Counted from the stretch's first letter, positions 13,570-64,000 are shown. The stretch is 64,000 bases of DNA from Lingula anatina (GCA_051362555.1 CM120642.1:29078001-29142000), one strand, 5' to 3'. The notes: a model not told the origin generated them from the letters alone. Program-made: numbers and translations.

Positions 13570-21254
<7,685 letters not shown>

Positions 21255-25541: not shown

Positions 25542-25573
<32 letters not shown>

Positions 25574-25766
25574 GGGGGGGTGCTAGGAAGGAGGGTTGTG
25601 GGAGTGGAGGGAAGGCATGTCAATACATTACAAAAAATAGATCAATAGAATATAACCATGACTTTTAATACCTAGAATTTCAGCTAACCTCATTTTAACC
25701 AGATGTTAGAAAATAAATTGCCAGTCTCTCTCTCTCTCTCTCTCTCTCTCAAGCACACTCACACGT

Positions 25767-25832
<66 letters not shown>

Positions 25833-26277
25833 GCACGCATGAATCACGGAACTCGAAGGCAAAACACACACGGACACGCACACATGCACATAAACACACA
25901 CACACCTACATGTACGTGCGCGCACACACACTCAGACAATATGATGATCTCTTACCTTTCAAGTCCCCGACTCCGTCTCCATCACTGTCCTGGAAAAGCC
26001 TGGGCTCCACCTGATAGATAATGGAAGTCTGCCACCATTCTAGTGTTGGCTCGGTTGCGACAGGAAAAAAGGTCACCACGAAGTACCGTGGAATGACCAA
26101 AATCACACCGAGAAGTATTGTCACAAGCACAGACTGCGAAATGAACGAGACGTACTCCCATATTTCCGCGGACAGCGGTTGCGACTTTTTCCATCGAGGA
26201 GCGGGTTTCCATTCGGGCACTTGGTCCGTGCACACTTCGGAGGTGACGGTAGGGGCTTGACGCTGTCGCACGGACAT
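22645..26277 (-). CDS. GH13 alpha-glucosidase-like type II membrane protein, predicted catalytically inactive, ~611 aa (gene B)
   Basis: Exons 26277-25956, 25103-24924, 24542-24259, 23921-23805, 23577-22645 join into an uninterrupted ORF. The 180-nt and 284-nt exons match gene A in length and phase. Catalytic motifs read [14 protein letters not shown] and TSYHG. Confidence 0.9.
25542..25580. repeat. Poly-G tract (gene B intron 1)
   Basis: Directly visible. Confidence 0.9.
25725..25931. repeat. (TC)n/(CA)n microsatellite complex (gene B intron 1)
   Basis: Directly visible. Confidence 0.95.
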
Positions 26278-34249: not shown

Positions 34250-35503
34250 ATGGCCTCAAGTCCTCGAGCGTCTCCCCACATGAGGAGAACCAGTCGTCTG
34301 GACAAACTGGAGGCCCAGAACCGCAAATTACGGTCCAAACTGAAGAAAATGGAGAAACGCGTGGACAACGTCGATAATCATCTCAAAGTTCCAGATGAGG
34401 ACTTCAATAATAAAGTAGAAAAACTTTCTGACGCGTATAAAATCTTAACTACAGGGGGATGTGGTGGCCCTGTAAGTACCTCAAATAACAGACAGAATGG
34501 AGTGACAAAACCCGTGGGGGATGACCCTCGTTGGCGACGCTTCAGATCTCGTTCGCCGACTCCATCACACGTTTCTCCACGCAGCCAAGAATCCTTGCCT
34601 GCGGTTTCTCCGCGCCCCGTGTTACCTCCATTACAGACTCAACTTTCACCCGAACAACCGAGTCCGAAACTTCTTCAACGCAGACGACACTCAATATGTC
34701 ACGTGCCTTTATCACATCCACAGCTACCAACCAATCAAAATTCGACAAATGTTGCAAAATCCGAGGATTCCGGTGAGAAATCAGAAGATTCCGAATTATC
34801 CACTAATGGATCGTCTGGTCCTTTACATAAAACCGGTACGATTCACACAGAATCTGCCGTGGAGATTTCGGTCACGGACCTCGCCGCACCTGAACCAGTT
34901 GAGATCATCGTCAGTAATGTTCCCGGATCCGCCCCAGACGGAGAAGAAGCCCCCAAAGATGACATTCCGAAAATCCCTCCTATCCGTAACAGGCGAAGAA
35001 ACTCGATTGCCGTTGGAACTGACCTCAGAAAGTTTCAACAAACTGAACGAAAGAAAGCGATCATACAAATTGAACGAAAGAAATCAAGCTCTTTAGAAAG
35101 ACTAGAATCAATTTGTGAAGAAAAAATGGCAATAGTTCGGCCCAGTTTCCATTCGGGGACAAAAAATGTCCCTTTATTTCTGCACCCCGAGTTCTTTCAC
35201 CTTCTTCAAACGTCGGGTCGGACTCGCGATAAACAAGAGACGGCAGCATCGGCGAATAATCCCGATTTCTTAAAGCCAGCGATTCCCGAGTACCGCATGG
35301 CGTCGAGTTTACGCCCTTCAGATGCCGCGGCGGCCCCAGTTGAAATGCAGACAGAAAAAAAGGGACTGGCGTCTTGGCTGGGGATGTCAAAGAAGTCGTT
35401 GAAAAGAGTACAGGAACGTCAAAGTAACGACCAGGCAGCGGAGGAGAGTATGGCTGCCAAACCCCGGTCCATAAATGACCGAAGAAAATCAGTTCTTTTC
35501 TGA
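34250..35503 (+). CDS. Uncharacterised, largely disordered protein with N-terminal coiled coil, ~417 aa, single coding exon (gene C)
   Basis: Long ORF in AT-rich DNA, preceded by a polypyrimidine-CAG acceptor at 34204. Shares several conserved blocks with ORF 41706-43166. Confidence 0.85.
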   Translation: MASSPRASPHMRRTSRLDKLEAQNRKLRSKLKKMEKRVDNVDNHLKVPDEDFNNKVEKLSDAYKILTTGGCGGPVSTSNNRQNGVTKPVGDDPRWRRFRSRSPTPSHVSPRSQESLPAVSPRPVLPPLQTQLSPEQPSPKLLQRRRHSICHVPLSHPQLPTNQNSTNVAKSEDSGEKSEDSELSTNGSSGPLHKTGTIHTESAVEISVTDLAAPEPVEIIVSNVPGSAPDGEEAPKDDIPKIPPIRNRRRNSIAVGTDLRKFQQTERKKAIIQIERKKSSSLERLESICEEKMAIVRPSFHSGTKNVPLFLHPEFFHLLQTSGRTRDKQETAASANNPDFLKPAIPEYRMASSLRPSDAAAAPVEMQTEKKGLASWLGMSKKSLKRVQERQSNDQAAEESMAAKPRSINDRRKSVLF

Positions 35504-41535: not shown

Positions 41536-41705
41536 CTACACTTGTTAAAAACTTGCTAGTTACATCATTTGCTGCCCACACATTTTCTAAGACAATAAAG
41601 TAACTTGCAATTAATTCTACTGTAAAGTGTGCTTTTGAAAAATTATTTTTATTATTACTATTTATATTTATTATATTTATTTTATAATTATAGACGTGAA
41701 ACATC

Positions 41706-43166
41706 ATGACGGAGCATAGTGTCACCTCTGAAGAACGCCTAAAAAATTTAGAAAGAAAAAATCACCAATTACAATCAAAGCTGGATAGCCTCTCAGAATG
41801 GGCTAACCATATAGGATCGACCATTTCGCAGGGAAATGTGGATAAAAAGGTGGAGGAATTAGCGGAGACGTATAAAACTCTTGCTGCTAGTGATGCTAAA
41901 AGACAAGCACAGCCTTCAACCGGTACGGGCAGTGGCTCTCCGAAAATGAAAAGCAAACAAACACAAGATCCAAGATGGCGGCGTTTCCATGCTGCAAGCG
42001 CGTCCCCGAATCCCGAAAAATCATCTACAGATGAACAAAGTTCCACTGTACTTTCTGAACAAAAAAACGTAATTTCAACATCAGGATCAACGTCAGATTT
42101 GAAGGATGAAAATCCACAAAAAATACCAGATGTGACGTCACAAGAGACTCAGCCTCAGGGTCCACGTCAAGACAGCCCACAAACCTCGCGTAAGATTGAG
42201 ACATCTCCGCGTCAAGGCCGTGTGGAACCCAAGAAACAATGTTCCGTGGAAATAATCGTTACAGATTTGACAACTGCGACACCTATAGGCCATACTCGCA
42301 ACGGCGGTGTAGAAATTAGAAACGACGAAGGGCAAATGCGTGTAGGCCTACCGGTAAGATCACGACCACGCAGCAATTCCTTTGATGTGGGAGCAGATAT
42401 GAGACGGCTGCAGCGATATAAAGCACAGGAAGCAAAAATGACCGAGGGCACAAAATTGCCCAAATTACAACCTGTTCGTTCTGCATATTCTGAAGGGTCT
42501 GAATCGCTTTTGCATCCCGAATGGTCCAAGCATTCCTCCATGGCAAGCTCAGATACTAGCTATCTTCATGGTGCTACCCAGAGAAGACGGGCAAGTTCGT
42601 TCGGCGGTATCGAGGTGACAAAGTCGCCAGATGCCTTACGTCGCCGACGGCCAGCGTCTGCGTCTGTGTCTGCCAGGCAGCTGGAAGCGATTGAGGCTCT
42701 TGGGGAAACGAAACTGGAACAGATTCGTCCCCACCGAAAATACGGTGCCAGTCAAGCAGGTGCCATTCCATCTCATCTCCACCCTGAGTTCTTTCATCTT
42801 TACTTTCGCGATAATGCACATGGCTGTAGAGACAAAACCAACGACAGTCACTTTGTTAGGCAACGTTCTCATTCAATGGGTGCTTACGACGCAAAAAATT
42901 ACAGACGGACACATCTGCAAAGAAGCAGGGTCGAGATGGACCCAGATCATCATGGCGTGACGTCAGAATCAGCGCCACCTATACCTGAGTGCAGAATTAT
43001 GTCGTCACTTCGTCCTTCTACAGCGGCCAACACGTTTGAGATACAGACGGGAGAACACGGCCTTGCGTCATGGTGTGGACTGAGTAAGAAAACACTGGGA
43101 CGAATACAGGCACGGCACCATAAGAGCATGGACGCCATACCAAATGATACGCACTCACACAAATGA
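41706..43166 (+). CDS. Uncharacterised, largely disordered protein, 486 aa, paralogue of gene C (gene D)
   Basis: Long ORF after an acceptor at ~41693. Shares the coiled coil, DPRWRRF, VEIxVTDL, LHPEFFHL and the C-terminal IPExR..SSLRPS..GLASWxGxSKK block with gene C. Confidence 0.87.
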   Translation: MTEHSVTSEERLKNLERKNHQLQSKLDSLSEWANHIGSTISQGNVDKKVEELAETYKTLAASDAKRQAQPSTGTGSGSPKMKSKQTQDPRWRRFHAASASPNPEKSSTDEQSSTVLSEQKNVISTSGSTSDLKDENPQKIPDVTSQETQPQGPRQDSPQTSRKIETSPRQGRVEPKKQCSVEIIVTDLTTATPIGHTRNGGVEIRNDEGQMRVGLPVRSRPRSNSFDVGADMRRLQRYKAQEAKMTEGTKLPKLQPVRSAYSEGSESLLHPEWSKHSSMASSDTSYLHGATQRRRASSFGGIEVTKSPDALRRRRPASASVSARQLEAIEALGETKLEQIRPHRKYGASQAGAIPSHLHPEFFHLYFRDNAHGCRDKTNDSHFVRQRSHSMGAYDAKNYRRTHLQRSRVEMDPDHHGVTSESAPPIPECRIMSSLRPSTAANTFEIQTGEHGLASWCGLSKKTLGRIQARHHKSMDAIPNDTHSHK

Positions 43167-44816: not shown

Positions 44817-47301
44817 TTATTTAACAAAATAACGTTGCATTTTAATCTTCATAACAGCCCAGCGTAATAAAACACTGTCTTTGCCATTTCTCCCGGGCAA
44901 ACCGGAGTGTTTGAACCAGAAAAAGCAATTTGACAAACAGTGCCCCGGAACCGCCATCTTACCAGTAAGAGAGACGCCGGTACATGCATTATACCACCAT
45001 CCACCCTTGAACTTCCGGCTACAGTTCTTATTATTGTCATTGTTAAAGGTATAAAATCTCAGGAGGTGATTATACCGCAACTTATCTGTTAGGTTGCCCT
45101 CAGTAGAATGTGATACGTTTAAAAGGTATTGATCGCCTTCCGAACCAATACGGAAGCGTTCACGGATGTTCCAAAAGTAAGTGTCGGTCAGCATGTCCCT
45201 GACTTCGATCATTAAGGAATAGTTTCCCTGATTGGTAAGATGATGAAAAGCTTCCAATCCCAGCCAATGGTCGCGGGCAATGTTACCAAACCCGTTTTTA
45301 TAAGCTTCCCACGACCTGAAATGCATTTAGATACAGCACTATGAGAACATTTTTTTCTTTCCATCTATACCTGTGTCAACCGGCGCTCACCTTTCAACCG
45401 CAGGGGCGGATCCAGGATTATTTGAAAGGGGGGAGGGGTCTGGAACGACAGGCCTCGAATGCGAAGCCGACCATCACCCCTTTGGTGTGGAGTTTGGGGC
45501 CTGCTAAAGGGCCCCGAAATTTTTTGTTTTGAAGAGCAAACAGTGCCTTATGATTCGGTTAAGAATTACGATTTAGCTAGTCAAAATTCTAATTTCAAGA
45601 ATATTGGTGTGATATGTTTTTTAGAAACTGAAGGGGGGGAAGACCCCCCTGACCCCCCTCTAAATTCGCTACCGATCCGGTCTTCACCACTGAGAAGTGT
45701 TAGTACAGATGGAGTACAACAATTAGTTGGAACAAGTTGTAATGCTACGAACTTCATGACCCATACTCAATGTATCGGAGGACAACACAAATATCAATTA
45801 GAGCTGAGCGCTGCTGAAAGGCACTACATTTATCCTGCCTAAAAGCTCGCCGATATCATAAGTATGCCTATGTCATTTATTGAACAGAAACAAAGCTTGA
45901 ACTTTGGTTAAAAATAAGTCACCTTTGGTTCATTATGCACCAATCTTCATTGGCAAATATAACTAGATTCCGCTCAGTTTTTAACTTAATTTTTCTCAGA
46001 ATCATAGTTCATGGGTTTTTCCGTTTACCTGTTGAAGTCTAATTCCGGACCAGTCCTTCGCATAAGAACCGTCCATCCCCGTTCACAATAAACTTGAATT
46101 GCCTTTCTCATGGAATGAACGTGAATCCAAAACACACCACCATCCAAGTCTGAAATGTAACGGAAATTGACCCATGGCTGTTTCTATAACCATCTAACCA
46201 TCGTATTCTCAAATGAGGCAAATCTTCGTGGTGCCCTTTATCCGGGCACCCTCTTACCACCTGTATCGTACATGTAGTTATTCCTATCTATATTCGCCAT
46301 AGTTTTCACTTTTGTTTCTTTTTTTTCACCGCTTATATCTGACTTTACTTCGATATTGCACTACATGAACTCGCCAACATTTCATGTATAAATTCATATA
46401 GAGTTTGACACTGCTTGATTCTTATTTTCCCATTTTTAATATGAATAAAAAAACTCTGGCCACTCACAAAAACAAACATTTGATAAACGCTTTTCCAGTA
46501 TAGGTTTGAAAAATGGGGATTTTTTTGTTTTGAAATTGCACTTCTATAATTATTTCGACCATTGGGCAAGGAAACATATTGAAAAATATTACTTACTGTA
46601 ATCAGCACAGTCCTTTGGAATCTAAAACAAATACACAGAAATACAAGGTTTTATTTGTCCGCCTGATCCTTTGACCAAGAAATAATAAGTTAAACAAAAA
46701 TACAAAATATGTATTGCAATCATGAAACTGGTTCACCCGGCCCTTAACTGAAGTTTGAAACTTTCAATCAAAACACCTAACTTACCGGGTAGAAGACATC
46801 ACACATAAAACAGGCACACATTCGAACGAAAATAGCAGCAGTACGACGAGTTTGTTTTTTTTTTGTTTTTTTTTTGTGCAAAAGTAATATGAAGGCAGAA
46901 GCTCACAAATCCCACGACACCCCCTCCCTTTTGTACGCTCACTATTTTAAAACTTAGCTTGCCACAAAATGCATATGACCTACCTTCATGTAGTAAGTGC
47001 TTTCAGTATCATCAACAAGAGATGTGGAACTAGTGTCGAACTCTGTACCTGTATTCAATTCACATGTCATATCGTCCAATCTCATGTTAAAAGACTTGCA
47101 CTGGGTATTTTTCTCACAGAGATTGGCACACTCAACACTACTGTTCTGCGTCGTTCTGTCCAAAACAGACCCTGACAGATATTTTCCCCGTTTGAATAGG
47201 AACAATCGTGCATTTGGATGCGAATCTTCCTCTGTAATGTGATTCAGAATGCAGACTGTGCTGCTCATAGCTAAGCATATCACCAGTAATCTTCCTAACA
47301 T
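44817..47301 (-). CDS. Secreted PAN/apple + fibrinogen-C (FReD) protein, copy 1
   Basis: Exons 47301-46984 (signal peptide plus PAN core CANLC...CKSFN...CELN), 46621-46597 (IPKDCADY), 46149-46029 (...VYCERGWTVLMRR...DFNR), 45315-44817 (SWEAYKNGFG...HWLGLE...GGWWY). Phases join in frame. Confidence 0.92.
45401..45673 (+). mobile_element. CAGGGGCGGATCCAGG-family element in intron 3 of FReD copy 1
   Basis: Same termini as the 10722 element; absent from the equivalent site in copy 3. Confidence 0.8.
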
Positions 47302-47837
47302 ATCTGATATGGACTTCTATAATATTTTCGGGTTTAAGAATGATTAAACACTCACGTTTTGTCTCCTATACCTCATATACTCATAATACGACTTTCGCCT
47401 TTCTCCAAACCTCTCGTGATTTTGAATGATAGTTTTTTCGAGATTACACGAGTTAAAATCGAAAATTGACTGTTTGTGTCGTTGATTACCATGGCAAAGC
47501 AATTGTATATACTTGGCAAACAACATAATGTTAGCCGAGCAGAAAGCGTGTAACACGTATAAGTCATGTTCGGCCCTTTTAATAAGTATATTTCACACAA
47601 TTATTGATGTTCTCTCGTGGCGGCAAATGAATACGGCGCGATAATTTACGTATGCTTCTGAATGACATTAAATAACTCAAACATTTGCTTAAAGGAGAAT
47701 TTTGGTTTTAGCATAGAAACTAAGTTCCTCCATGTCAAGCTCATAATACTCTCTGTCCCACCCAGAGGTAGCAGGAAAGAACGGAAATATCAAGGTGACA
47801 AAACGCCCTTTTCTACGAGGCAGTTAGGTGCCATTTT

Positions 47838-48078
47838 GACCCACAAAAATAAAGTTAAGTCGATACCATCTCTTTTCATCTCCACCTTGATTTGTTTCAT
47901 AATTGTTTTGTGTTTATGTACAATTTTAAGGCAAAAAAATTCAATAAAACACATTTAAAAAGGGAAAAAAAGGATTGTGATGATCCTTGCTCGACGTCAG
48001 CATTAGCGCCACCTATACCCGAGTGCAAAATTATGTCGTCAGTTAGTCCTTGTGGTGCGGACAACACTTTTGAGATAT
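47838..48078 (+). pseudogene. Decayed fragment of the 3' part of gene D (or a close paralogue)
   Basis: APPIPECKIMSSVSPCGADNTFEI matches gene D APPIPECRIMSSLRPSTAANTFEI. catctccaccttgatttgtttcat matches the HLHPEFFH codons. The homologous region is shortened by deletion and has no 5' half. Confidence 0.8.
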
Positions 48079-48401
48079 TAAAAAAGAACACAGAGATAAC
48101 ACATGTATTTTAATAGAACTCTTATAGCAGCATGACCTACCGGTGAAATCAAGTAGTATGAAGTACATGACCACAAAATAAGTGTATTTACGTACATCAA
48201 TACACACAGCTATGATTATTCTTTAAAGAAATCTATTCTGCCAATTACGACAACCTTTCTTAATTTTCAATCACAAGTTATTCATCATCAAGTCTAGACT
48301 TGGATAAAAATTTCTATCAGATTGATACTGATGTTAGATATAAAATGAACAAGAGACGAAAGCACGATTTTTTTCTTACATTATTTTACAACAAAACCTC
48401 G

Positions 48402-50849
48402 TTATATTTTAATCTTCATAACAGCCCAACGTAATAAAACACTGTCTTCGCCATTTTTACCGGGCAAACCGGAGTGTTTGAACCAGAAAAAGCAACTTGA
48501 CAAACAGTGCCCCGGAACCGCCATCTTACCAGTAAGAGTGACGGTGGTACATTTATTATACCACCATCCTCCCTCAAACTTCTGGCTACAGTTTATATCA
48601 TTGTCATTGTCATAGGTATAAAATCTCCGGAGGTGATAATACCATAACTTATCCGTCAGGTTGCCCTCATTAGAATGCGATACCTTTAAAAGGTATTGAT
48701 CGCCTTCTGAACCAATAAGGAAACGTTCATGGATGTTCCAAAAGTAAGAGTCGGTCAGCATGTCCCTGACTTCGATCATTAAGGAGTAGTCCCCTTGATT
48801 GGTAAGACGATGAAACGCTTCCAATCCCAGCCAGTGGTCGCTGGCAATGTTACCAAACCCGTTTTTATAAGCTTCCCACGACCTGAAATGCACGTATGAA
48901 TGGCAGCACTATCAGAAAAATTTTTCTTTCCATCTATACCTGCGTCAACCGGCGCTCACCTTTCAACCGCAGGGGCGGATCCAGGGTTATTTGAAAGGGG
49001 GAGGATCTGGAACGACAGGTCTCGGATGCGAAGCCGACCATCACCCGTTTGGTGTAGGGTTTGGGGCCTATTAAAAGGCCCCAAAAATTTTGCGGCGTTT
49101 TGAAGAGCAAACAGTGCCATTTGATTCGGTTTAGAATTACGATTTAGCTAGTCACAATTCTAATTTCAAAGCGGAATATTGGTGTGATATATTTTTTAGA
49201 AACTGAAGGGGGGGGGAAGACCCCCCTGACCCCCTCTAAATCCCCCACTCAACCGGTCCTCACCACTGAGAAGTGTGCGCCGGCTGTCACAAGTATAAGT
49301 ACAGGTGGAGTACAACAATTAGTTGGCACAAGTTGTAATGCTAGGAACTTCATGTCCGATACTCAATGTATCGGACGACAACGCAAATATCAATTAGAAC
49401 TGAGTGCTGCTGAAAGGCACTATCCTGCCCAAAAGCTCGCCGATATCATAAGTATGCCTATGTTGTTTATTGAACAGAAGCAAAGCTTGTACTTTGGTTA
49501 AAAATAAGTCACCTTTGGTTCATTATGCACCAATCTTCATTGGGAAACTATGACTAGATTTCGCTCGTTTTTTACTTAATTTTTCTCAGAATCATAGTTC
49601 ATGGGGTTTTCCGTTTACCTGTTGAAGTCTAATTCCGGACCAGTCCTTCGCATAAGAACCGTCCATCCCCGTTCACAATAAACTTGGATTGCCTTTCTCA
49701 TGGAATGAACGTGAATCCAAAACACACCACCATCCAAGTCTGAAATGTAACGGAAATTGGCCCATGGCAATTTCTGTTACCATCTAACCATCGTATTCTC
49801 AAATGAGGCAAATCTTCATGGTGCCTTTTATCCGGGCACCCTCTAATTACCACCAGTGCCGTATTCATTGCTATCTATATTCTCACTAGTCTTCATTTCT
49901 GTTTCTTTCTATCACCAGTTATGTCTGAATTTACTTCAATATTGCAGTACATAAACTCGCTAACGTTATGGATTCATATAGGGTTTGCACTGCTTGATTT
50001 CAATTTTCACATTTTTATATAAATGTAAATAAAAAACTCTGGCCACTTAGAAACGAAAAGTTTATAAACACTTTTCAAGTATTGGATTGAAAAAGGGATT
50101 TTTAAAAATAATTATTTGTATTTTTATCATTATTTCGACCATTGGGCAAGGAATCATATTGAATAATATTACTTACTGTAATCGGCACAGTCCTTTGGAA
50201 TCTAAAACAAATGCACAGAAATACCAAGGTTTTATTTGTCCGCTTGATCCTATGACCACGAAATAAAAGGTTTAACAAAGGTACAAAATACAAAATATGT
50301 CTTGCAATCATGAAACCGGTTCACCCTTAACTGAAGTTTGAAACTTTCAATCAAAACACCTAAGTTAGAAGACATCACACATAAAACAAGCATTCATTCG
50401 AACGAAAATAGCAGCAGTACGACGAATATTTCTTGTACAAAAAGAAGCTCACAAATCCCATGACCCCCCCCCCCCCTTTTGTACGCTTACTATTTTAAAA
50501 CTAATCTTGCAACAAACTGCATATGACCTACCTTCATGTAGTACGTGCTTTCAGTATCATCAACAAGAGATGTGGAACTAGTGTCGAACTCTGTACCTGT
50601 ATTCAATTCACATGTCATATCGTCCAATCTCATGTTAAAAGACTTGCACTGGGTATTTTTCTCACAGAGATTGGCACACTCAACACTACTGTTCTGCGTC
50701 GTTCTGTCCAAAACAGACCCTGACAGATATTTTCCCCGTTTGAATAGGAATAATCGTGCATTTGAATGCGCACCTTCCTCTATAATGTGTTTCAGAATGC
50801 AAACTGTGCTGTTCATAGCTAAGCATATCACCAGTAATCTTCCTAACAT
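48402..50849 (-). CDS. Secreted PAN/apple + fibrinogen-C protein, copy 2
   Basis: Exons 50849-50532, 50201-50177, 49739-49619, 48882-48402; same structure as copy 1. Confidence 0.92.
48970..49250 (+). mobile_element. CAGGGGCGGATCCAGG-family element in intron 3 of FReD copy 2
   Basis: Same insertion site as 45401; caaccg occurs on both sides. Confidence 0.8.
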
Positions 50850-51389
50850 GTCTGAAAAGGGGTTCTATAATATTTTCGCGACTAAGAATGTTTTAACACC
50901 CGCGTTATGTCTCCTATATCCCATATACTCATAATACGACTTTCGCCTGTCTCCAACCCTCTCGTGATTATGAATGATAACATGAGTTACAATCGAAAAT
51001 TGTTTGAATAATTGATTACCATGGCAAAACAATTTTATTTCCTTGACAAACATCATATGTTAGCTGAGCAGAAAGCGTGTAACACGTACAAGTTATGTAT
51101 TCCCTTTTTAATACGTATATTAATGATGATTATCGATGTTCTCTCGTGGCGGTAAATGAATGCGGCGCGATAATTTACCTATGCTTCTGAATGATAATAA
51201 ATAACTCAAACATTTGCTTGTAGGCTAAAAAGGTCTAACTGAAAATTCGGTTTTAGTATTTTATAGTATTTTAGTTTTAGAAACCGAATTCCTCCATGAT
51301 AGGCTTAAAGACTTTCTATAGTTCCCAGAGAAAGGGTGGAAGAATAGGTGTATCGAGAAGAAAAAACACCCTTTTCTACGAGGCAGTTA

Positions 51390-51470
51390 GACCACATTCT
51401 CATACCTAGATCGATCTAGCAAGAGCAACCCATCTCCGAGGGGTTTCTTGCTAAATTATGTTCAGCTTAA
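51390..51470. mobile_element. 5' remnant of the 31054 MITE family
   Basis: ttagaccacattctcatacctagatcgatc...ggggtttcttgctaaattatgttcagc resembles the left end of the 31054 and 38204 copies. Confidence 0.5.
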
Positions 51471-51808
51471 GCGGCTCGGATGTCTGGCACCCGCCAGATA
51501 TCGTGCCAGATATGTAAGCAAAGCTAAAAAATATATTACCTCGTGCCCATCCATTAAAATCTCTCTTCTGCTAGCCAATGAACACATTACACCACCTGTA
51601 CAGCACCATGAGCTATGGTAGTGTACAGGTAATATATATTAAGCAGTATATTTCACATATATCAAATCATACCGCAATGCTTAGATTAACAAATAAACAT
51701 ATATATTATCCTTTACATAAGCTTTTCTGGTGTTTTGTTTATCATAATTCGTTTATATAAATCGATAGTGTTACAAGAGAATTTCGATCTGGACGAAGTT
51801 GACTTTGG

Positions 51809-54206
51809 TTAAGGAGAGGACAAGCATCTTAAGTGTGACTGGCATTCATTCTGCAATAGTTCATCCCTAGCCCTTTTAATCTTCAAAGCAGCCCAGCGTA
51901 ACAAAGTGCTCTCACCGCTACTGCCACTGGACACACTGGTGTGTTTGAACCACCTTAGGCATTTTGACAAACATTCCCCCGGCATCGCCATTTTAGCTGT
52001 AAGCGAGACACGGGTGCAGGTGTCGTACCACCACCCTGCCCCGTACTTTAGGCCACAGCTCTTATTATTGTCATTGTCATAGGTATGAAATCTCTGGAGG
52101 TTATTATACCATAACTTATCCGTCAGGTTGCCCTCAGTAGAAAGCGATAAGTTTAAAACATATTGATCGGATTCCGGACCAATACGGAAACGTTCACGGA
52201 TGTTCCAAAAGTAAGAGTCGGTCAGCAAGTCTCTCACCTCGATCATTAAGGAGTAGTTTCCCTGATTGGTAAGATGATGAAACGCTTCCAATCCCAGCCA
52301 GTGGTCGCTGGCAATGTCACCAAATCCGTTTTTATAAGCTTCCCACGACCTGAAAGGCACGTACGAATGGCAACACCAAAAGAACATTTTTTTCTTTTAA
52401 AACATCTGTACTTGTGACAACCAGCACACACCTGTCAACCGGTCGTCACTCATGAGGTGTTCGCCGGTTGTCACGAGTACAGACAGTGTACAACAATTAA
52501 TCGACACAATTTGTAATGCCACGCGCGTCATGTCTTCGACTCAACGTATCAACCGAGTGCTATGAAAACAACTACATATAGTGACCTAAACTTCATAGGG
52601 TTCAACAGCTTCGGCCTATATATATTACAAGTTTTCCTATGTCGTTTCTTGAACGGACACAAAGCTTGTTGTATGGTGGGTGGCTAAAGTTAAATTGCCT
52701 TTGCTTATCAATCTCCCCAAGCAAAATATCATTAGACTATTATTACTTAATTTTCAAAAAAAAACACACTAGAGCGTGGCATTTTCCGTTTACCTGTTGA
52801 AATTTAATTCCGGCCCAGTCCTTCGCATAAGAACTGTCCATCCCCGTTCACAATAAACTTGAATTGCCTTTCTCATGGAATGAACGTGAATCCAAAACAC
52901 ACCACCATCCACGTCTGAAATGAAACGTTATTTCAGTTCCACGGTTAACACTTTTTAAAAATCTAACCATTGATAGCGCACATCACCATGGTGATCTTTT
53001 TCCCCCCTCTACATGTATCAACTCGTTACTCATTACTCATTACTTACTACATAGTATTTCCATAATTTTTTCACTTATTTTTTTTTCTTTTGTTATCTGC
53101 ATTTACTTATCCGTCTCCACCCTGATATCCCAGGTTTCTGATGTAGTTGAGAAATAGTATACAAAATTGAAGTATGGGCGACACAATGATTTTGTAACAG
53201 ACTTCTTACGTTCCCTGTTGTAAGAGAGTACGCAGTGTAACTCATTTTGCCCTATTTGAAACCATAGATGTTTAAAATGTATATAGCGATTTATAATAAA
53301 GATATGAGACCGCTTGATTACAAATAAAAAACCTATTTCGACCATATTGTACAAGTTTGAAGGGAATTGTATTACTTACTGTAATCAGCACAGTCATTTG
53401 GAATCTAAAACAATAAATGTGAAATAGAAACAGCAAGGATTTACTCGCACGTCTGATCCTATGAATAAAAATAGACAGTAAAAACATGCCGTTTCCAAAA
53501 AGACAAAGCTTGTGTTCCCTCAGCTCACGTTTGAAAATATTTAATAAAACACTCACTAACGAATATAACACATTAGAAAGGTGCACAGTTGCAAAAGGGG
53601 GGTTCTTTTTCTGAAAATGTGGACCTTTTGTCACGAAACCTTAGTTTACCTTAATCAAATTAACAAAGAAAGGACATTTTCCAGCAAAAAGGGGGTTCTT
53701 TCGAACCCCCTCCACCCCAAACCCTCCTGGCTACAGGTCTGCATTCGAACGAAAATAGCAGTAGTATGATGACTTTTTTATTCTTATGGCGGCTAATTTT
53801 TATACGGTACGACCCCCTCCCTTCCGTTTTCTAGGGTCCTCGTTTTTTTTTTATAACCTCATTATGAAATATGTTTATTGCTTACCTTCATGTAGTGCGT
53901 GCTTTGAATATCATCAACAAGAGATGTAGAACTAGCGTCGTACTCTGTACCTGTATTCAATTCACATGCCATATCGTCCAATCTCATGTTAAAAGACTTG
54001 CATTGAGTGTTTTTCTCACAGAGATTGGCGCATTCTACACTACTGTTCTTTGTCATTCGTTCCAAAACGAACTTTGGCAAATATTTCTCCCGTTTGAAAA
54101 GAAAATAATTTATACTTGAATTCGAACTTTCAGCCATAATGTAATTCAGAATGCAAACTGCACTGCACAGAGCAGAGCATAGTACCGATATACGTCTTCC
54201 TGGCAT
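51809..54206 (-). CDS. Secreted PAN/apple + fibrinogen-C protein, copy 3 (most divergent)
   Basis: Exons 54206-53886, 53404-53380 (IPNDCADY), 52914-52794, 52349-51809. Confidence 0.92.
53585..53741. mobile_element. Fragment of an interspersed repeat in intron 1 of FReD copy 3
   Basis: gggggttc...cgaaccccc...ctggctacaggtctg block is absent from the matching intron of copies 1 and 2. Similarity to those copies resumes at cattcgaacgaaaatagcag. Confidence 0.5.
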
Positions 54207-55046
54207 ATCTGAATATCTCTAAGATTTTCATGATTAAGAATAAAACAACTGCTTTAAGTCTATTTTCGAGATTACCCGAGTGTCAATCGAATATTGATAA
54301 TGTTGTGAATTTTTGTGTTGCCGGTAACCATGACAAAACAGCAAAAATGCTTTAGTCCAATATGTATTTTATTTACTTGACAAACAAGATGTATCCATTG
54401 GAGGAGAATGCTGACATATGTATGAAATATGCATGTCGCTTATAATTACTATACCACCTCCCTGATATTGATGTTTCTCATGACAAGGCAAAAATACGGT
54501 GCAGTAATGGGTCTATGCTTTAGAAAAGCAATAATGAATTAAACGATTGGTTTCATCTAACCAATATGCGTCAGACCTTTAAATAGTGAAAAATCAATTG
54601 TCTTCCAAATTTCAGTTTTACACAACGGATGTACGTGCTATTAAAAACTATGAAGAAAAGTTATGGTCTTTAAACACGTTTTCGAGTTCAAGTCTTGTCT
54701 TTACAGTTGCAGGTTCCAGGAGTTTTTATACGGCATATAGGAATGATTAATACTATCCAAGAACGTACTTTCTAGTAATACGTCGTTGAGGTGCATACAT
54801 GTATATCGCGTGGCAACATTGTATTTTCTTCTTTATTGTCATGACAGTCATTTATTAAAAAGTTCATTTATACAGTACATGTTCACATAGATATACCGGT
54901 AACTGTTTTAATATGATGTTTTCCAAAACTGGAAATATTATTGGCAAAAGTTATTTTCATCAGGGTATAAAAAGAAAAAAAAATCATTTTAAAAGGTGGT
55001 CTTCGACCTACGGCAATCAATCCCAACACGCTCTCAAACATAAGCC

Positions 55047-58000
55047 TTATTTAAGCAAGTACTTTGAGGCATATCCCAGAAAAGACGTTCCTTCGTGTCG
55101 GTAACTTTCGTCATTACCAGAGGTGTCTGGCCTCGGCGACGCCGCCACGCGACCAAGTTCGTTAAAACGACTGGTACCTCCCGGATTTAAACTCTTCGGT
55201 GCCCCTGGAATGCATGCGCGTTCGTCCGCAGTCCTTGGCGAACAGCCCGTTAAGCTGGCACCCTCATCCGTTGACAGACCAAATACAGGCGTAGAAGCCA
55301 CACTTGTGACGTCACTACCAGAATCGGAAGCGATGGCCTGAGCGGTGACGTCATCAGCCTGTATGGCGGTCCCCTGTCGTTTGGTAGCAATTTTTGCCTT
55401 GCACACAAGTTTCCCTCGCCCATTATAGAGAGCGGGCCAGATGAAATAGTTTATTTCTCCTGAGGTGCAACCCCACCGATCCTGTAAGAGATTGTAATCA
55501 AATCTAAACGGGGGAAACAAATTGAGATAGGTTCGGAAGACGACATTAAGATAATATGTGTCTCGTTTGATTTTACCGCAATGGCGTATCTGAGACACTA
55601 GATGCTTCTCCAAAGTAAAGTTATGTAAAGTGACGCCTTAGATAACTATAGCTATGCCCGTCAAAAGGCTTGAACCTAGAACTTTCAGGTATCTATATCT
55701 ATTAAGGAACTAAAATTACCCATGCAAAACGGAGAATGTAAATCTATGTGGTTTGCAGCCCCTGTCTTATTGCCCACGTTGTAAATTACACTTCTGCAGC
55801 TTAGGTGACTGTAAGGAGATTAGAAAAAAAGGTCAAACAAACATGCACTGGTGCCAGAAAAGCCATGGAACCACCGATTTTCTTTACCTCATGCACCTCT
55901 TTGTCCATCTTCGCACCACTCCAGTCTAGTTTCATCGGCGGGTCCAGGACCACCATTTTCCAAAACACACGGACACAGTGACGGACAAATCTCTTCAAAC
56001 AGGATGACTTGATGACGTCTTCATTGCACTGGAGACTGGTCCGTAATTGCTCTAACACATCCTGAAAATGGTATGCATGTTACGCTGTTAACATGTAGTG
56101 ACTACTATCAGTGACAACTTTTAAAAGCGTAATCAAACATGTTGTACTAGTTCATGAGCGCTAATATATAAATGTAGTGAATATCCTATGGATATTAAAT
56201 TGAGCAGTGTTCAAAGGATAATAATAACATGTCGCCTTGATCTCTTCCATATGAGCCCATACTCGAAGTCGATTTTGAAGTGGTTGATTACATATCATAT
56301 GTATCATTTTGAATCGATGTACCTGATTTATTTCCTTTAAGTCATGCCGCTCTGTGTTGTTGACCAGGAACTGCCGAATCGTGTGCGATATCCGATCGAA
56401 AAGTTCCTTCTATAATATAAAATGAACATTATCATAAGCGTTCACTGAAAAAATTACGAAGCGCGTTCTAATTTTAAGTGCAGGTATTTTTTTCGTAAAC
56501 ATATATATTTTTGTTAAGAGTTCTAGTGAAATTAATCAAATTAACAGAGTACAAGAGCATAAAAACGGGGTACAGCTCACCTCTTCTTCGCTGTCGGCGC
56601 ATGCGTCTTCCACGTGCCTGGGAAGATTGGCATCTAATGAACTATGCCGACTGTCGGAAGAATGGCTGTGTTTGCCTTCTGAAGACGTGCGAAAACTCCC
56701 ATGACCGTGAAAGGTTTGGTTGAAATTGACGTCTATCGTCGGTACCCTCAAGGAGGCCTTCCACCCCTGCGTATAGTTCTGAAGCGCCTTTTCTGTGCAT
56801 TCATATGACACCTGCACAAAATATTCATTGACACATAAAAACGATGAAAATTTATCACACAATTACGTTGGTAAATTGAGTTTATACTAACTTATGAGCA
56901 AACAAATAGTCCTAGAAACTGATTTACTTACTACTGGATTTTTGCCAGTGGTTTCTGTCACTTATCATGTTTGTCAACACATTTAAAACTTTGCAGAATC
57001 ATGTTGTAACGTAACCATGGTACCGGGATATACATGCACATGCATTACCCATTCAAAAATTACTTATTGCAATGTAGTTTTTATATATAATAACTCGGTT
57101 AATTTGATAACAGTGATATTGGGTGAATATAAGTCGAGATTAAATCCCTATGACAACTACATTTGGAACAGTTAAAATATGCTATATTAATGTGATTGGC
57201 ATTGATAAAATTTGACCGCGTGCACAACAATATGGCACGCAGTCTGACAAAATATAGATAACAGATAATAAAAATGGGAAACAACAGTCAAAACTTGAAT
57301 TTATTATATGATTATGGTTTAAAGGCCATTTATCTTAGAAACTCTTTCTAGAATAGTTATTGACGACTTTAGAAATTTATCAGTTGTGAGACTCAAGAGA
57401 ACGAAATTTGTTTAGAACACCAAAAGCCAGAAAATAGCAAACAACAAAGCAGTTTATGATGACTAAATGGAACACGAACACTGAGTGAATTAGACAAACA
57501 CGAAATTTGTAAATGGGTAAAGAGAACAAAGGCGGTCATCCGAATAAAAATAAAAGAAAGTTAATTTGAACGGGAATAGTGTAGCCATTGTCCAACATTG
57601 ATCACTACAAATATCACTTCTACTATTGAAGGACAGGGGGGAGGGGGTTGGGGAGTGGAAACCTCGTCACTTTAAAGAAAGTTACCAAATAAATATCACA
57701 ATTAAAGGCGAGAAAGCGAATCAAAATTTCAAAGTTTACTGTTGAAACCCTACTAACTTTAAAAACAAGCATTTTGGTGTGTCTCCTAGTTGAGGAGTAT
57801 TATTCTTTTTTACGAGAGAAGCCATATTAAATCGTTAGGCGAAAAGACGTTGATGGCACAAAATTCATTTACTCACAGTCACTGCTGTGAACAAAATACC
57901 GATCCCTTCTTCTTCCGTGAATTCAAAGTCGTCTTGCAGTTGGTCCAGAGCTCTGTCGTGCTCTTCCTCGTACAGGTCCATCGTGTACATGTCCACCAAC

Positions 58001-59033
58001 TGGTCAGGGGTCGTGGCCGCAGCCGGTCTGGCAACATTAACGGCGTGCGGGTTTAATTCCCTGTTTATCCTGTGCTGCAATTCGGCCAGCCTAAAATCAT
58101 TTAGATAAACGTAGTGATAATGTTAGTAAACTAGACTAACGCAGTTTTTTTCTTTGTATCAAAAAAGTGTCGTAGAGACATCTAGCATGTCTTCAAGGCA
58201 AAATACTCTGTGACTCCCGTCAACTGTTTCTGACCTACAGACATTAACTTTTTGAATAGCCGTGTATAAAAATGCATGTATACTCGGTAGAACAAAGTTT
58301 TAAAAAACAATCAATAATTTGTTCAGTTCCTGTTATTTTTTTATGACTGCACCTCAACAAAGACTTGCAGTCTAGGGGGGCAATAACAAGAATCAAGAAT
58401 ATTGGGATTGAAATTTGGTGACCGTCCCCTATGACGTTACCTCTTATTTTGCTGTGCCATCTTTGACGTCATGCTTTGATTTCTGGTCGACAAATCACCT
58501 GTCGTCGATCGCAACGTTTGCTCTTCTGTGCTTTTTCCCTCCAGTTGTGAAAGATAAATGTTGTTGGCGTCCTTAAGAGTACTGTTCTCAGATATCTTCT
58601 CACTCAATTGTCTTTGTATTTCGCGAAGTTCTGTCTGTAACTCTCGAACTCTGTAATTCTGTTTGTGTAGTTCTCTTTGGGTATCACTGACAAGAGAAGA
58701 AAGTCCCCCTTTCTTGAAGAAGTGATCGACGTATTTTATATGTTCCACGCAATTCGAACAACCCTTGCACGCCTCTTTCAACTGTTTGTTTGCATTCTTG
58801 ATAATATCACCTAAAACTTTCTTGTGTTTCTGACATGAAGGGGCGTAGGATAAACCAGAATGTTCAGTATCTAACTTGAAATCAAAAATGGCGGACAGGA
58901 GATACCGATTTGAGGTATCTTCTAGGCATTCCACAGTTTTTCCGATAAGTCCGAGCCGCAGATGCGAGAAATGGTGGCTGTCTTGTCCTTGCCTGTGAGC
59001 CACTGAAACCTGCCGTAGGAGTCCCAAGTCCAT
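55047..59033 (-). CDS. Coiled-coil protein with MIEAP/SPATA18-like C-terminal domain, ~577 aa
   Basis: Exons 59033-58441, 58090-57877, 56811-56581, 56409-56323, 56061-55888, 55481-55047 join in frame (GT-AG). Motifs PDQLVDMYTMDLYEEEHDRALD, CVRVFWKMVVLDPPMKL and YFIWPALY...KLVCKAKI resemble the MIEAP-domain pattern. A long heptad region lies in the first coding exon. Confidence 0.82.
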
Positions 59034-59698
59034 CTGCAAATAATTGAAATTAAAAAGTCAGAGATGTTGAGGCCGAGCTAATGCACTAGGATACATGAGA
59101 ACACGTTGAGCGGGGTATATAACACGAAAAGAATGATGTAGACACGGTGGCAAAAAAAAGGTGACTGAGGTGAGAGTCCCAAACCAATCCGAAAACGTTC
59201 ATTGTTCGGAACTGTATCGGGGAGATATAACTAAATGTACATGGAGGTATCATTAAATAATAATTAACTGCGCACATATAGGTAGATGTAATAGGTCTAT
59301 GTCAAACATTAAAAACAGTACAAGACACGAGAGAGTTATGAGTAACAAACGAAACGGTTGGCGTGCTGAGATAGAAATCTGATTAATGTGAAAAATTAAC
59401 GAAAGTTTTTATTGGTTATTTACAGATATGGGATCCTATAATCGTTCAGGGGACGTTTAATATCACTTCTGCACTGATTGAATGTTTATCAATTGAAAAA
59501 CAAACATGAGTCATACTGTTTAATCCAGAGGTCTGTCTATACTTTTGCTATTGGGACTTTCAACCAAGACCCTAATAAAATTATTACCGATCCTAACATA
59601 GATTCTTACGTAAGAAAAGATAATGTTTAAGAGTGTCAACATAGTAGGAATCACGAGACTGAATCACGCGACTTGACATCAACAAGCTTTAACGTTAC

Positions 59699-60679
59699 CT
59701 GTATGACAAGCGAAAGTACGGATCTATAATCTGAGAATTAAATAAAGATGTCTCTTACTTAACAAACGATCTGTGTCCGCTTGGTTACTGTGATCGAAGT
59801 ACGTCCTTTTGTTAATAGCTGCTGTGTTGTCAGTAGTCAATTTTCCCCAACATAGAAATCACAGGCATATTTATGAACGATGATTAAGGTACATGTAACA
59901 TCGATTCCTACGTTGTCGAATCCAAGTTTGTACTTAGTCTGTTTCTTTAGACACTACTTAGAGCATGTTTGACTTTTAAAATGATCCCGATTACTCACCT
60001 TGGATCCTGCTTTATGACATATTAAATTCAGGTCCAATTTGAAGTCAGTTCTCACTGTGCTTTGTCACACGTATTGATACTTGAACTTTATCACGACGAC
60101 CCTATGCTCCGGCCATATCGCATTGATAACATAGATCAGATAACTCACTCCATCTGGGTCACGAATCCCTGACAAATAAACAGCTAAATTGTATTCAAAA
60201 TAAATCTGCCTGTCGTTGCGCAAGACACTCAATTAGGCTAGATAAGACAAGAAACCGATGTGAATATTTAAACAAATTAAGGAAGGTGACATCAAGACAA
60301 AAATTTGACGCCAGCAAAAATCCGCAATAAGGAGGTTCAGCCGATCTGCAGCTCAGCAACACGCCTACATATGAGAAAATGGTTTTTCTGGGGTAGGCGT
60401 CTGTTTGGTAAGCTACTGACAAATTATGTAAATGATTACGTCACCGTTTTTTTTTTTTTGTGCTTGTGTGAACGGGGTCTTCTACACGTTGACTTGTGAC
60501 CAATGCCTTCATCCATATTTACAACAGAGTAAGGGTTCAGCTAGGACAGAGTTAATAGAAGCAATGACTTGTATATATTATTGTCTAGAATATCTCTTTT
60601 ATGGGAGCTACATGGTTAGTTAGGCATGATTTTTTTTATTGGTGTAGATTAGCGCAAGAAGTCTTATGTATACTTCATA
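59699..60679. promoter_or_regulatory. Putative bidirectional promoter region and 5'UTR exons of the MIEAP-like gene
   Basis: Minus-strand donor AAG|GTGAGT at 59999/59998 and a candidate 32-nt UTR exon 59730-59699. The candidate first HSPA12 coding exon starts at 60680 on the plus strand. Confidence 0.5.
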
Positions 60680-63600
60680 ATGATGGATATGTCAGGATTG
60701 TTCCTGTCCAGCGTGTACAGATCTTGGGGTAAGTGTTTCTTTTTTTTTTTTTTTTTTTTGTCTCTTCTATTTTTTTTATTAATGTTTTTTATTATTATTT
60801 GTATGTTCTGTTTGTCTTTTTCCCCTATCTCAGCAAATTGAACCCCAACTGTATAATCTGTATAATTTCAAACTTTGTCCTGCATTATCAGATATCCGGC
60901 CCCCTCTGTTAACGGCAAAACCTAGGGGTGTGGGAAGAAAGTGGAAGATACTGCTACACAATAATTTTAAAACGCTGCTGGCAACTAACACTAAATGTCA
61001 TCAGTTATCTAATTGTTCATCTTTTTTCCGTGTTTTGGCAGCACAGACACGTAGAAAGAGGAGCAGTGACCTATAAATAATAAACTAAAAAAAAAAAGAA
61101 AAGACAAGTAATATGTTTCTCTATTTGAATCTTTTCGTTTATTTATTTATTTATCAATTAATCTATTTTCGTTTTTTTAATCAAATTTTTTTCTTATCAG
61201 CCATATGTTTGTTCATTATAGTAGACAATGAAAGGACACAATCATTTAAAGAAGAGGCTGGACCTAAAGCTGAAACGCCGGAAAACCCTTTCTGTATGGT
61301 AGCGGCTATTGACTTTGGAACCACATTTAGCGGCTATGCTTACTCTTTTACCTCCAACGAAAGCGACATCTATATTAACGCCAACTGGGGAGCAAGTGTC
61401 GGTCAACAGCTCTACCGGACGCCAACTACGGTGTTAATCAGCCCGGATCAATCTGAGGTCAGCTGATGCCCTTTTTTTTTATTAATTCTTTACTTTGGAT
61501 GAAGATAAATTTTGACTGTTTTAAATGATATAGGCCTATTTATTGAATTGAAGATAATGATAATGATCATGCTAGTGATCATGTTCTGCAAGTAGATATT
61601 TGCGAATTTTAATTTTAAAACTTAACTTTTTAACTTTTAAAAAGTACCAATTATTAGGAAAATCTACAGTATATCCTACATAATACATAATATAAATGAA
61701 TACAGTGTATATTGTAATGTGAGGCCAAAGGGAAATAATAATTTTCCAGACAATCATCAATAATCTTATCCTGCAGTTTTACTTACGTAATTGATATGCT
61801 GACGTTTTCTTTCTTATAATTCTATGAAAAATCTACAATCAGAAGTCAAAACTCTTTTTTTATGTTCAAAAGGCATATTTTGGATTCGAAGCGCAGCAGA
61901 AGTTTCTTGAAGAATTAGAGCCAGAGGAGGTTTCAGAGTGGTACCTGTTTGAGCGGTTCAAAATGAAGCTAAATGCAGAATTGGTAAAACATGTTTTTTT
62001 ACCTAAAGATGCTATCGTACTCTACAAAAGATTTGAATTTTATTTAAAAACGGCTATAGTATACTTCATCGTCTGTCAATATTCCATTGCTTGGAACTCT
62101 CCTATACATGTATATGTACATTTACTTTGAAATTAATTTTTATTCAAGGCAATCGTGCAAGCATTGAGATACAGATAAATTTATTTGAGAACCGTATGTT
62201 TCAGGAGATAAACCCCAGAACAACAATGCTTCAGGCCGATAACGGAAAATCTCTCCCTGCTCAAGTAGTCTTTTCCCATGCAATTAGGTTGCTTAAAGAG
62301 CACTTGCTTGAGTCACAAAAACAGTCCGTCTTGGCTACAGAGGTATTGTGGGTGATCACAGTGCCCTCTGTCTGGTCAGATCAAGCCAAAGAGTTTATGC
62401 GGCTATCTGCAATAAAGGTAGGCTACCCAACAAGGCCTTTAGTAGAATCATTTGACCTTAATAGTCCACTAGTATATTTATTAAAAATTTTGGATCAAAA
62501 AAACGTGTCACATATACAGAGTAGAAAAAGTTACATTACAATTCCTCAGATTATTTTGCGGTGACACATATTCTCTCATGCAATTCGGGTACTCCATTAG
62601 TCTTAAAGAATTTTAAAAAATTTACCCTCTCTCTAGGCAGGTATTCCGCGAGAACAGCAGTTAATCGCATACGAGCCAGAAGCGGCGTCTCTGTATTATC
62701 TGAAACAGTGCAAACAGACGCCGCAGAGAAATCCTGCTGGCACCGTGTCGCTTGACATCAACAAACCCGGAGTTACATTTATGGTCGCCGATCTGGGGGG
62801 TAAAGTATTTGCATATAATTCTTCAGGAATAACATACCTCTATGGCTTCTTAATTTATTGACGACTTAAGACACGTAATGAAGCAAGGTCAAAATAAACA
62901 GAAAAAACAAGTCAAGAAGGCCTATTTCAGTTTCACATTAAAAAGGCCGATTAGAGTACAGTCTGACGTAGGCTTCACAGTATTTAATCAATATGTTTTG
63001 GGATAAAACAGGATAATATCATAACTCTCGTTTCCAGGCGGGACAGCGGACATCACAGTCCAAGAGATTGACCGAACTACCTTAAAACCTAAAATTCTGA
63101 GCAGGCCCACAGGGGGACCGTGGGGAGGAGACGCCGTGAATGTGGAGTTTGAAAAACTTCTGGATTCGGTATTTGGAAAAGAAAAAATGGGTATTTGTAT
63201 TATGCATGCTAATGTCATTTCTGTAACATATTAAACCAGTTTAAAATGTGTTTCATTTCATTTAGGTTTCGTTGTGGTAATTTACCATTAAATAAAGGTA
63301 TTCAAAATATTCCGCCAACCATACCCCGTACATGTATACATGTATGTATTTGCAAGATTTTAAAGCAGGGGTTTTTATGACTTTTTATTACTTTCTACAC
63401 TTTTTCATATTATCAATATAATTTCTAGATAAAATGCGGAGATTTGGCCAAAATACCTTTGTAGACTACGAGGTCAATTTCTAATTTTCAGATGGCTTCC
63501 GCGCCTTGCACCCAGATCATTGGCATCGCATCATCAGAGAATTTGAAATCAAGAAACGAACTCTATCGCCAGTCAAGCAAGTTCCAACTCGTCTAGTGTT

Positions 63601-64000
63601 TCCTGCAGGTTTTCTCTCCTATGCTAGCTCTCACCAGATGTCACTTGCCGAATCATGTAACATGTACGAACCAAAAGGAGCTTTAACGTGGAGCATCGAT
63701 AAAATTCGCATTTCTAGTGACGTCATGCGAGGACTTTTCGAGCGTACAATTAAAGCAATTTCCAATCACTTGTTGGAGTTCATAACAACAAATGAGAACA
63801 ATATATCTTTCCTTGTTCTTGTTGGCGGATTTTCAGACTGTCCTTTACTGCAGGAAGCAATTACGGAAAGGTTCAAAGGTCGTTTGAAGGTCATTACACC
63901 AGGCAATGATGGCGGTTTGTGTGTTGTAAAGGGGGCGGTAGTGTATGGACAAAACCCCGCCATATTCAAACAGCGCGTTGCTGGCTATACGTATGGCATC
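60680..64000 (+). CDS. Heat shock 70 kDa protein 12 (HSPA12)-like atypical Hsp70 (partial; continues beyond right edge)
   Basis: Exons 60680-60728 (tentative), 61225-61457 (VAAIDFGTTFSGYAYSF), 61873-61983 (WYLFERFKMKL), 62205-62417 (WVITVPSVWSDQAKEFMR), 62637-62799 (IAYEPEAAS...VADLGG), 63038-63190 (GTADIT...GGPWGG), 63492-64000+ (FEIKKR...LVGGFSDCPLLQ...VVKGAVVYG...YTYGI). These are HSPA12-family motifs. Confidence 0.95.

Follow-up and report, generated by a model that had tools for sequence, protein, structure and literature searches.

A MIEAP-domain gene paired head-to-head with HSPA12 in Lingula anatina encodes a predicted HSPA12 binder and likely a distant GrpE relative

We analyzed a 64,000-nucleotide stretch of Lingula anatina DNA (GCA_051362555.1 CM120642.1:29078001-29142000; hereafter the window), in which a gene encoding a MIEAP-domain protein stands divergent to a gene encoding the Hsp70-type protein HSPA12. 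The two constitute a real, conserved two-gene module. The MIEAP-domain protein is a predicted binder of the HSPA12 nucleotide-binding domain (NBD), and we hold with moderate confidence that it is likely the dedicated nucleotide-exchange factor (NEF) of HSPA12 and likely a distant relative of GrpE. An initial annotation of this DNA had proposed such a chaperone and GrpE-like partner pair; it is supported in part, in that fold ranking (below threshold), co-folding and adjacency do not refute it, while the GrpE sequence profile and the invariant GrpE Arg speak against membership of the GrpE family.

Results

The Divergent MIEAP and HSPA12 Genes of the Window

Splicing of the window DNA resolved the MIEAP gene (minus strand) into six coding exons, all at AG/GT sites. 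Exon 1 (59033-58441, -) encodes aa 1-198, comprising an N-terminal helical region and a long coiled coil, and an upstream non-coding exon is likely because an AG acceptor directly precedes its ATG. Exon 2 (58090-57877, -; aa 198-269) carries the end of the coiled coil and the first MIEAP helices, including the predicted HSPA12 contacts 214-219 and 234-261; exon 3 (56811-56581, -; aa 270-346) a helix and a Ser/His-rich insert of low model confidence; exon 4 (56409-56323, -; aa 347-375) helical bundle; exon 5 (56061-55888, -; aa 376-433; Pfam MIEAP E 5e-9) the last helices and the GrpE-like first half of the beta head; and exon 6 (55481-55047, -) the second half of the head with the WP motif and K461, a low-complexity tail of about 110 aa and the stop codon. 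The spliced product is identical throughout to RefSeq XP_013395234.1 (P0001, 577 aa, Lingula anatina), which exon 5 alone matches at 100%, confirming the earlier description of a coiled coil and helical region followed by a stretch quoted there; P0001 spans WSGAKMDKEVHE..KAKIAT across the junction of exons 5 and 6.

In P0001 the coiled coil (about 110-210) precedes a MIEAP domain (226-466) interrupted by the low-confidence insert and followed by the low-complexity tail. Pfam MIEAP (PF16026) matched it at E 1.2e-27 (97.6 bits vs a cut-off of 27), and the assignment also held for 61 of its 61 relatives, the closest of which reach at most 38% identity. Word-index homologue searches returned P0001 as the sole match, and a sequence search of the PDB gave no match under E 0.3. 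A second Lingula MIEAP copy (P0002) and its HSPA12 partner (P0090), near-identical copies both located on 212,699-nt contigs, are probably an allele or recent duplicate. Compared with the window, P0002 has a 34-nt gap in exon 5; its frame shifts at residue 387 and the protein stops ahead of the beta head, whereas P0090 carries 7 changes and is full length. Because P0002 has lost its head, this pair provides no independent support.

On the plus strand, seven exons of the window encode residues 1-478 of the 614 of HSPA12 (P0003), and the gene continues past the window end. These are exon 1 (60680-60728, +; start codon), exon 2 (61222-61457, +; phosphate-1 motif IDFGTT and predicted contact 65-70), exon 3 (61873-61983, +; RFKM motif), exon 4 (62205-62417, +; TVP motif), exon 5 (62637-62799, +; EPEAA and the beginning of DLGGGT), exon 6 (63038-63190, +) and exon 7 (63492-64000, +; subdomain IIB with predicted contacts 325-381, and VGGFS), which leaves the window. 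The nucleotide motifs IDFGTT, K, EPE, DxGGGT and VGGFS (at 46, 123, 216, 255 and 419) are all intact, Pfam HSP70 matched P0003 at 1e-13, and its 87 relatives are HSPA12A/B-like wherever named, the others being unnamed. Like HSPA12A/B, P0003 has no lid: it shares 25-39% identity with animal HSPA12 across most of its final exon and ends after the beta part of the substrate-binding domain (SBD-beta), its profile stopping on the SBD-beta of BiP; in the available part of a 2026 review, HSPA12 is described as having no alpha-helical lid, its function is called unknown and no cofactor is described (PMC13580251). P0003 differs from them in its long branch outside the mollusc expansion, grouping weakly (SH-aLRT 84) with a paired coral gene in a tree built by a quick method and unresolved.

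The two ATGs are 1,647 bp apart, in agreement with the annotated distance of about 1.65 kb between divergent start codons, and enclose a region of 37% GC (59034-60679, no strand assigned) that is a candidate shared promoter. The further claim of first exons less than 0.7 kb apart fits a strong donor on the minus strand at 59999, which is 681 bp away from the HSPA12 ATG; the exon itself remains a candidate 5' untranslated exon of the MIEAP gene, predicted from the splice signal. No consensus of a heat-shock element, NF-kB or IRF was found between 59034 and 60679. Eight of nine sequencing runs from the same species were aligned to the window. Of these, X1 gave 3 reads, with one pair on MIEAP exon 6, and X2 and X4 none; four further runs had zero depth across 55001-60400 and 61601-64000, and 96-99% of their reads aligned elsewhere in the window continue into sequence unlike it. 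Dispersed short repeats at 53592-53629, 51395-51456 and 61138-61177 recur across numerous unrelated transcripts (as many as about 2,400 loose-ended reads).

Conservation of the Pairing in Corals and Bacteria

The pairing recurs in the coral Pocillopora verrucosa, for which we used a gene table (PMC7594246 supplement, rows up to about gene 12,550) that carries no strand and in which gene numbers were taken as positions. Among the listed genes, 7 are MIEAP-type and 11 HSPA12, and 6 of the 7 MIEAP genes carry numbers adjoining that of an HSPA12 gene (g1442/1443, 2134/2135, 2136/2137, 7806/7807, 7809/7810 and 12445/12446). With tandem clusters counted once, 4 of 5 MIEAP clusters adjoin HSPA12 (binomial 4e-11), and the pairs are duplicated as units. 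Additionally, on a coral-type metagenome contig (L015, the same DNA as L016) whose HSPA12 is 68% identical to a Montipora protein, a MIEAP exon (E 5e-8) is encoded on the other strand at a distance of 3.2 kb upstream from the HSPA12 start. Its splice phases equal those of Lingula exon 2, and a candidate MIEAP first exon lies some 0.4 kb away from the HSPA12 ATG; Pfam by itself does not identify the former exon. The order MIEAP, HSPA12 and carnitine acyltransferase is that of P. verrucosa g9118 (no match), g9119 and g9120.

L015 and L016 were the only 2 of 80 metagenome loci with a MIEAP exon, where only 13 have at least 3 kb upstream of the match and most others are too short for partner detection; likewise, no partner exon appeared at the 14 animal-type loci whose upstream DNA measures 0.8-4 kb, stretches too short to decide. 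In two high-GC eukaryote-type loci, L022 (8598-9986, -) and L017, a divergent gene overlapping the HSPA12 upstream region has a tail resembling the MIEAP head (HHalign 65%, without significance by hidden Markov model), which makes them a lead only. The Saccostrea echinata MIEAP protein P0116 and HSPA12 P0022 are both on 22,588,512-nt contigs. The terms MIEAP and HSPA12 were not present in the supplements of PMC6208414 and PMC6182001, and the available two rows of the PMC8905726 supplement name HSPA12 and not MIEAP.

In bacteria, a coiled-coil partner with a beta head was found directly downstream of the HSPA12-like gene in 18 of 18 distinct actinobacterial loci, a count obtained with a profile iterated from the partners themselves, and such a partner occupies the same position at 4 of 5 HSPA12-like genes of cyanobacteria. 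Bacterial HSPA12-like genes are rare: they turned up in 0 of 400 draws from one phylum, 16 of 401 from one family and 4 of 301 from another phylum. Pfam MIEAP had no match in three bacterial genomes with a partner or HSPA12-like gene, and Pfam named 0 of 15 bacterial partner pieces, the best GrpE head match being at E 0.27. Directly upstream of three of these operons stand vWA (and PP2C) genes (L082:3008-4968, L103:787-1392, L104:793-1398), with vWA and PP2C in L082 and vWA in L103. With the coral count and 22 of 23 bacterial loci paired, the pairing is not due to chance.

Predicted Contact with the HSPA12 ATPase Domain

The HSPA12 NBD (38-472) was co-folded with two MIEAP-domain copies in three runs alongside three controls, yielding a score of 0.61 vs 0.00 for the best control, so that an interface with the NBD is predicted. 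Of solved pairs, 51 of 78 attain the mark used, as do 2 of 108 mismatched pairs (39/65 and 2/126 for eukaryotes); the runs agreed in at least 62% of contacts, with a partner pLDDT (predicted local distance difference test) of at least 72. In the models, HSPA12 would be contacted at 325-381, corresponding to subdomain IIB by alignment to BiP, and at 65-70 in lobe I, which by DnaK numbering we take to be subdomain IB. On the MIEAP side, the predicted contacts fall at 429-463 in the head and at 214-261 in the first MIEAP helices; conservation is higher at these columns than elsewhere in the domain (0.49 vs 0.38, p 0.001). The models thus predict that the MIEAP-domain protein binds the HSPA12 ATPase domain. 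According to PMC4753570, subdomain IIB is the target of all known NEFs, and GrpE inserts one of its beta domains as a wedge in the Hsp70 cleft.

Resemblance of the MIEAP Head to GrpE

A model of P0001 aa 191-470 built on 59 alignment rows (pLDDT 86; 40 for the single-sequence model) shows a bundle of helices with a beta head at the C terminus. Against 350,542 chains, Foldseek placed GrpE/GrpEL1 at all of ranks 1-10 (best E 0.021), and VIA, run on 48,161 chains, placed GrpE at ranks 1-3 (Z 7.5, 7.5 and 7.2), with a root-mean-square deviation of 3.6 over 101 in the alignment to 4ani_A. GrpE is thus the top structural match in both searches, below strict significance in each. A viral fold library gave nothing under E 0.09, and GrpE was not among the ESM Atlas structure matches listed for P0001. 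The look-alikes that the atlas gave for aa 345-470 were plant GIL1/IRKI, ciliate, Mucoromycota and unnamed mollusc clusters; the plant GIL1/IRKI C-terminal domain (PF24994) resembles aa 350-470 (template modelling (TM) score 0.63-0.66), as a lead only. On these models, a GrpE-like head may be widespread in eukaryotes.

Sequence profiles provided the intermediate. A profile of four cyanobacterial partner heads, holding no animal or GrpE rows, gave the P0001 head 18.2 bits, a score that 0 of 1000 shuffles matched (best 6.7), and GrpE a median of 11.5 bits. By HHalign, the MIEAP head matched the cyanobacterial heads at 95.7% over 74 columns, and these matched GrpE at 94.8% over 49 columns, values that 0 of 40 block shuffles reached. 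At the level of sequence profiles, then, the cyanobacterial partners clearly bridge the MIEAP head and GrpE. With the actinobacterial heads alone, P0001 does not stand out from shuffles (57 of 1000 reach its score), and the actinobacterial partner profile reached 32% against GrpE. Taking the sub-threshold fold searches and the profile chain together, we regard homology between the MIEAP and GrpE heads as highly probable.

The two motifs that the initial annotation had aligned with the GrpE head resemble it only in part, and the GrpE profile does not score this head above shuffles. The G-x-x-F-D-x-x-x-H-like motif is partly kept in MIEAP rows (F 37/59, D 36/59, H 28/59), G-Y is replaced by A-L-Y in P0001, and R-P-A-x-V is not kept. 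In overall design, P0001 is similar to GrpE/GrpEL1/Mge1 (PF01025), the partners of DnaK-type Hsp70, in its coiled coil, its modelled helical bundle and predicted small beta head, in the adjacency of its gene to an Hsp70-type gene and in its predicted contact with NBD subdomains IIB and IB. It differs in having WP and K-G motifs in place of the invariant Arg region, in a larger bundle (about 100 more residues and the insert) and in its lidless partner HSPA12.

Other Genes in the Window

Three tandem, mutually diverged PAN and fibrinogen-C genes (44817-54218, -) adjoin the pair, with fibrinogen exons at 44817-45326, 48402-48908 and 51809-52396 and PAN exons at 46954-47316, 50490-50864 and 53862-54218 (all -). 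An immune role had been suggested from these fibrinogen (FReD) neighbours; synteny does not support it, the coral locus being flanked by a carnitine acyltransferase gene, and the neighbours carry little weight. Further away lie a tail-to-tail pair of alpha-amylase-family genes (maltase or SLC3A-like; Pfam PF00128) at 19073-21254 (+) and 22645-26349 (-), and two long single-exon frames, apparently paralogues, at 34178-35503 (+) and 41700-43166 (+), which have in common a short N-terminal coiled coil, DPRWRRF and HPEFFH and match no Pfam family.

Discussion

In the mechanism that we propose, the MIEAP protein would grip NBD subdomain IIB and contact IB, as the models predict; this grip would open the cleft and release ADP from the protein's own HSPA12, the variable coiled coil and tails might place the pair or choose clients, and the divergent layout might co-regulate both genes. 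In a broader proposal, about which we are slightly more doubtful than not, the MIEAP domain, also in the human p53 target Mieap/SPATA18, would be an exchange factor derived from GrpE. HSPA12 and MIEAP would then be the two parts of an ancient Hsp70 machine distinct from DnaK-GrpE, whose genes would have stayed paired in lineages as far apart as multicellular bacteria and animals and been amplified together in marine invertebrates, probably in connection with stress or defence.

Several observations weigh against an exchange factor of GrpE descent. P0001 has no Pfam GrpE (PF01025) match at E 10, the GrpE profile scores its head at -1.4 bits (38 of 1000 shuffles as high), and direct HHalign of MIEAP and GrpE gives 10.6% over 13 columns, covering only the G-x-x-F-D-x-x-x-H piece. 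The invariant Arg of GrpE (29/29) aligns with C460 of P0001, a variable column; since this Arg is not kept, P0001 is GrpE-like and not a GrpE family member. The bacterial head segments were delimited after the likeness was seen. No Foldseek match reaches E 0.001 (TM 0.2-0.3), and the next unrelated VIA chain has Z 6.7, where values under 8 may reflect a common arrangement. As for the complex, 7 of 44 blind neighbours also reach the co-fold mark, and the pass may partly echo solved GrpE-DnaK complexes; confident contacts come from only one of the two MIEAP copies, many via helices outside the head, conservation is lower at the HSPA12 contact columns than in its remaining columns (0.40 vs 0.57), and co-folding, whose controls included no close cousin, cannot tell which family member binds. 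Regarding linkage, g997, the P. verrucosa gene most like vertebrate Mieap, is without an HSPA12 neighbour, 5 of the 11 P. verrucosa HSPA12 genes are without an annotated MIEAP neighbour (3 of these adjoin an unnamed gene), and 0 of 61 MIEAP relatives are fused to HSPA12. P0001 itself shares the invariant WP and the preceding coiled coil with Mieap/SPATA18 (PF16026), but stands far from vertebrate-like orthologues and is linked to HSPA12, which g997 is not.

The complex could be real while the MIEAP protein serves as adaptor, sensor or brake of a stress or defence switch with HSPA12 as its ATP-gated effector, exchange being incidental or lost. We consider this rather unlikely, even though the patchy spread in large-genome bacteria, the vWA/PP2C genes upstream in L082 and vWA in L103, the unit-wise duplication of pairs in coral, the low identity of P0001 relatives (all at most 38% among 61 matches) and the extra helices that carry much of the predicted interface all speak for it. 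So do the actinobacterial GAP1-N2 GTPase conflict systems, which, in the available text of Kaur et al. (2020; PMC7159879), have accessory Hsp70/GrpE genes beside regulatory genes; that text differs in not naming HSPA12, and no GTPase was seen here, where no search aimed at one was made. The predicted site is nevertheless the NEF site, HSPA12 keeps its nucleotide motifs, and the fibrinogen neighbourhood is not kept in coral; moreover, a switch component and an exchange factor are not mutually exclusive.

Less probable still, the two genes might be co-inherited and co-regulated while the MIEAP domain, as has been proposed for human Mieap, acts on condensates or membrane lipids and makes no contact with HSPA12. 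The available part of PMC10845071 proposes that the C-terminal structured region of human Mieap binds cardiolipin-type lipids and never mentions Hsp70, and coral g997, nearest to vertebrate Mieap, is unlinked; the co-fold pass against 0.00 controls, the homology chain to GrpE and a gene order kept down to bacterial operons all argue the other way. Chance adjacency of two expanded families is very improbable and largely refuted already by the coral and actinobacterial counts. It would draw on the tens of HSPA12 copies in bivalves (PMC13580251, in the part available) and on the presence of a MIEAP exon in no more than 2 of the 80 metagenome loci (both the same DNA), but only 13 of those 80 have at least 3 kb upstream, the coral count stands at 4e-11 and 22 of 23 bacterial loci are paired. 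We retain the reading of the MIEAP-domain protein as a predicted HSPA12 binder and likely exchange factor.

No paper linking the MIEAP family with HSPA12 or GrpE was found in a search that left subscription papers, bioRxiv supplements and clan or structure-linked domain databases outside, and no fold relative of the MIEAP domain was found in print. For Mieap and GrpE together, the accessible text yielded only hypoxia/lysosome work, and for "MIEAP domain" none; the available parts of the GrpE review PMC12987570 name neither Mieap nor HSPA12, and those of PMC12692333 no GrpE. The Lingula window ties the pairing of HSPA12 with a partner to the named MIEAP family and to animals. With a named partner, a predicted interface and ADP release as an assay, the questions of HSPA12 function and of the MIEAP fold become testable, and there is reason to test human HSPA12A/B against Mieap. 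If true, the proposed role would extend the set of eukaryotic exchange factors by one of GrpE fold that works outside organelles.

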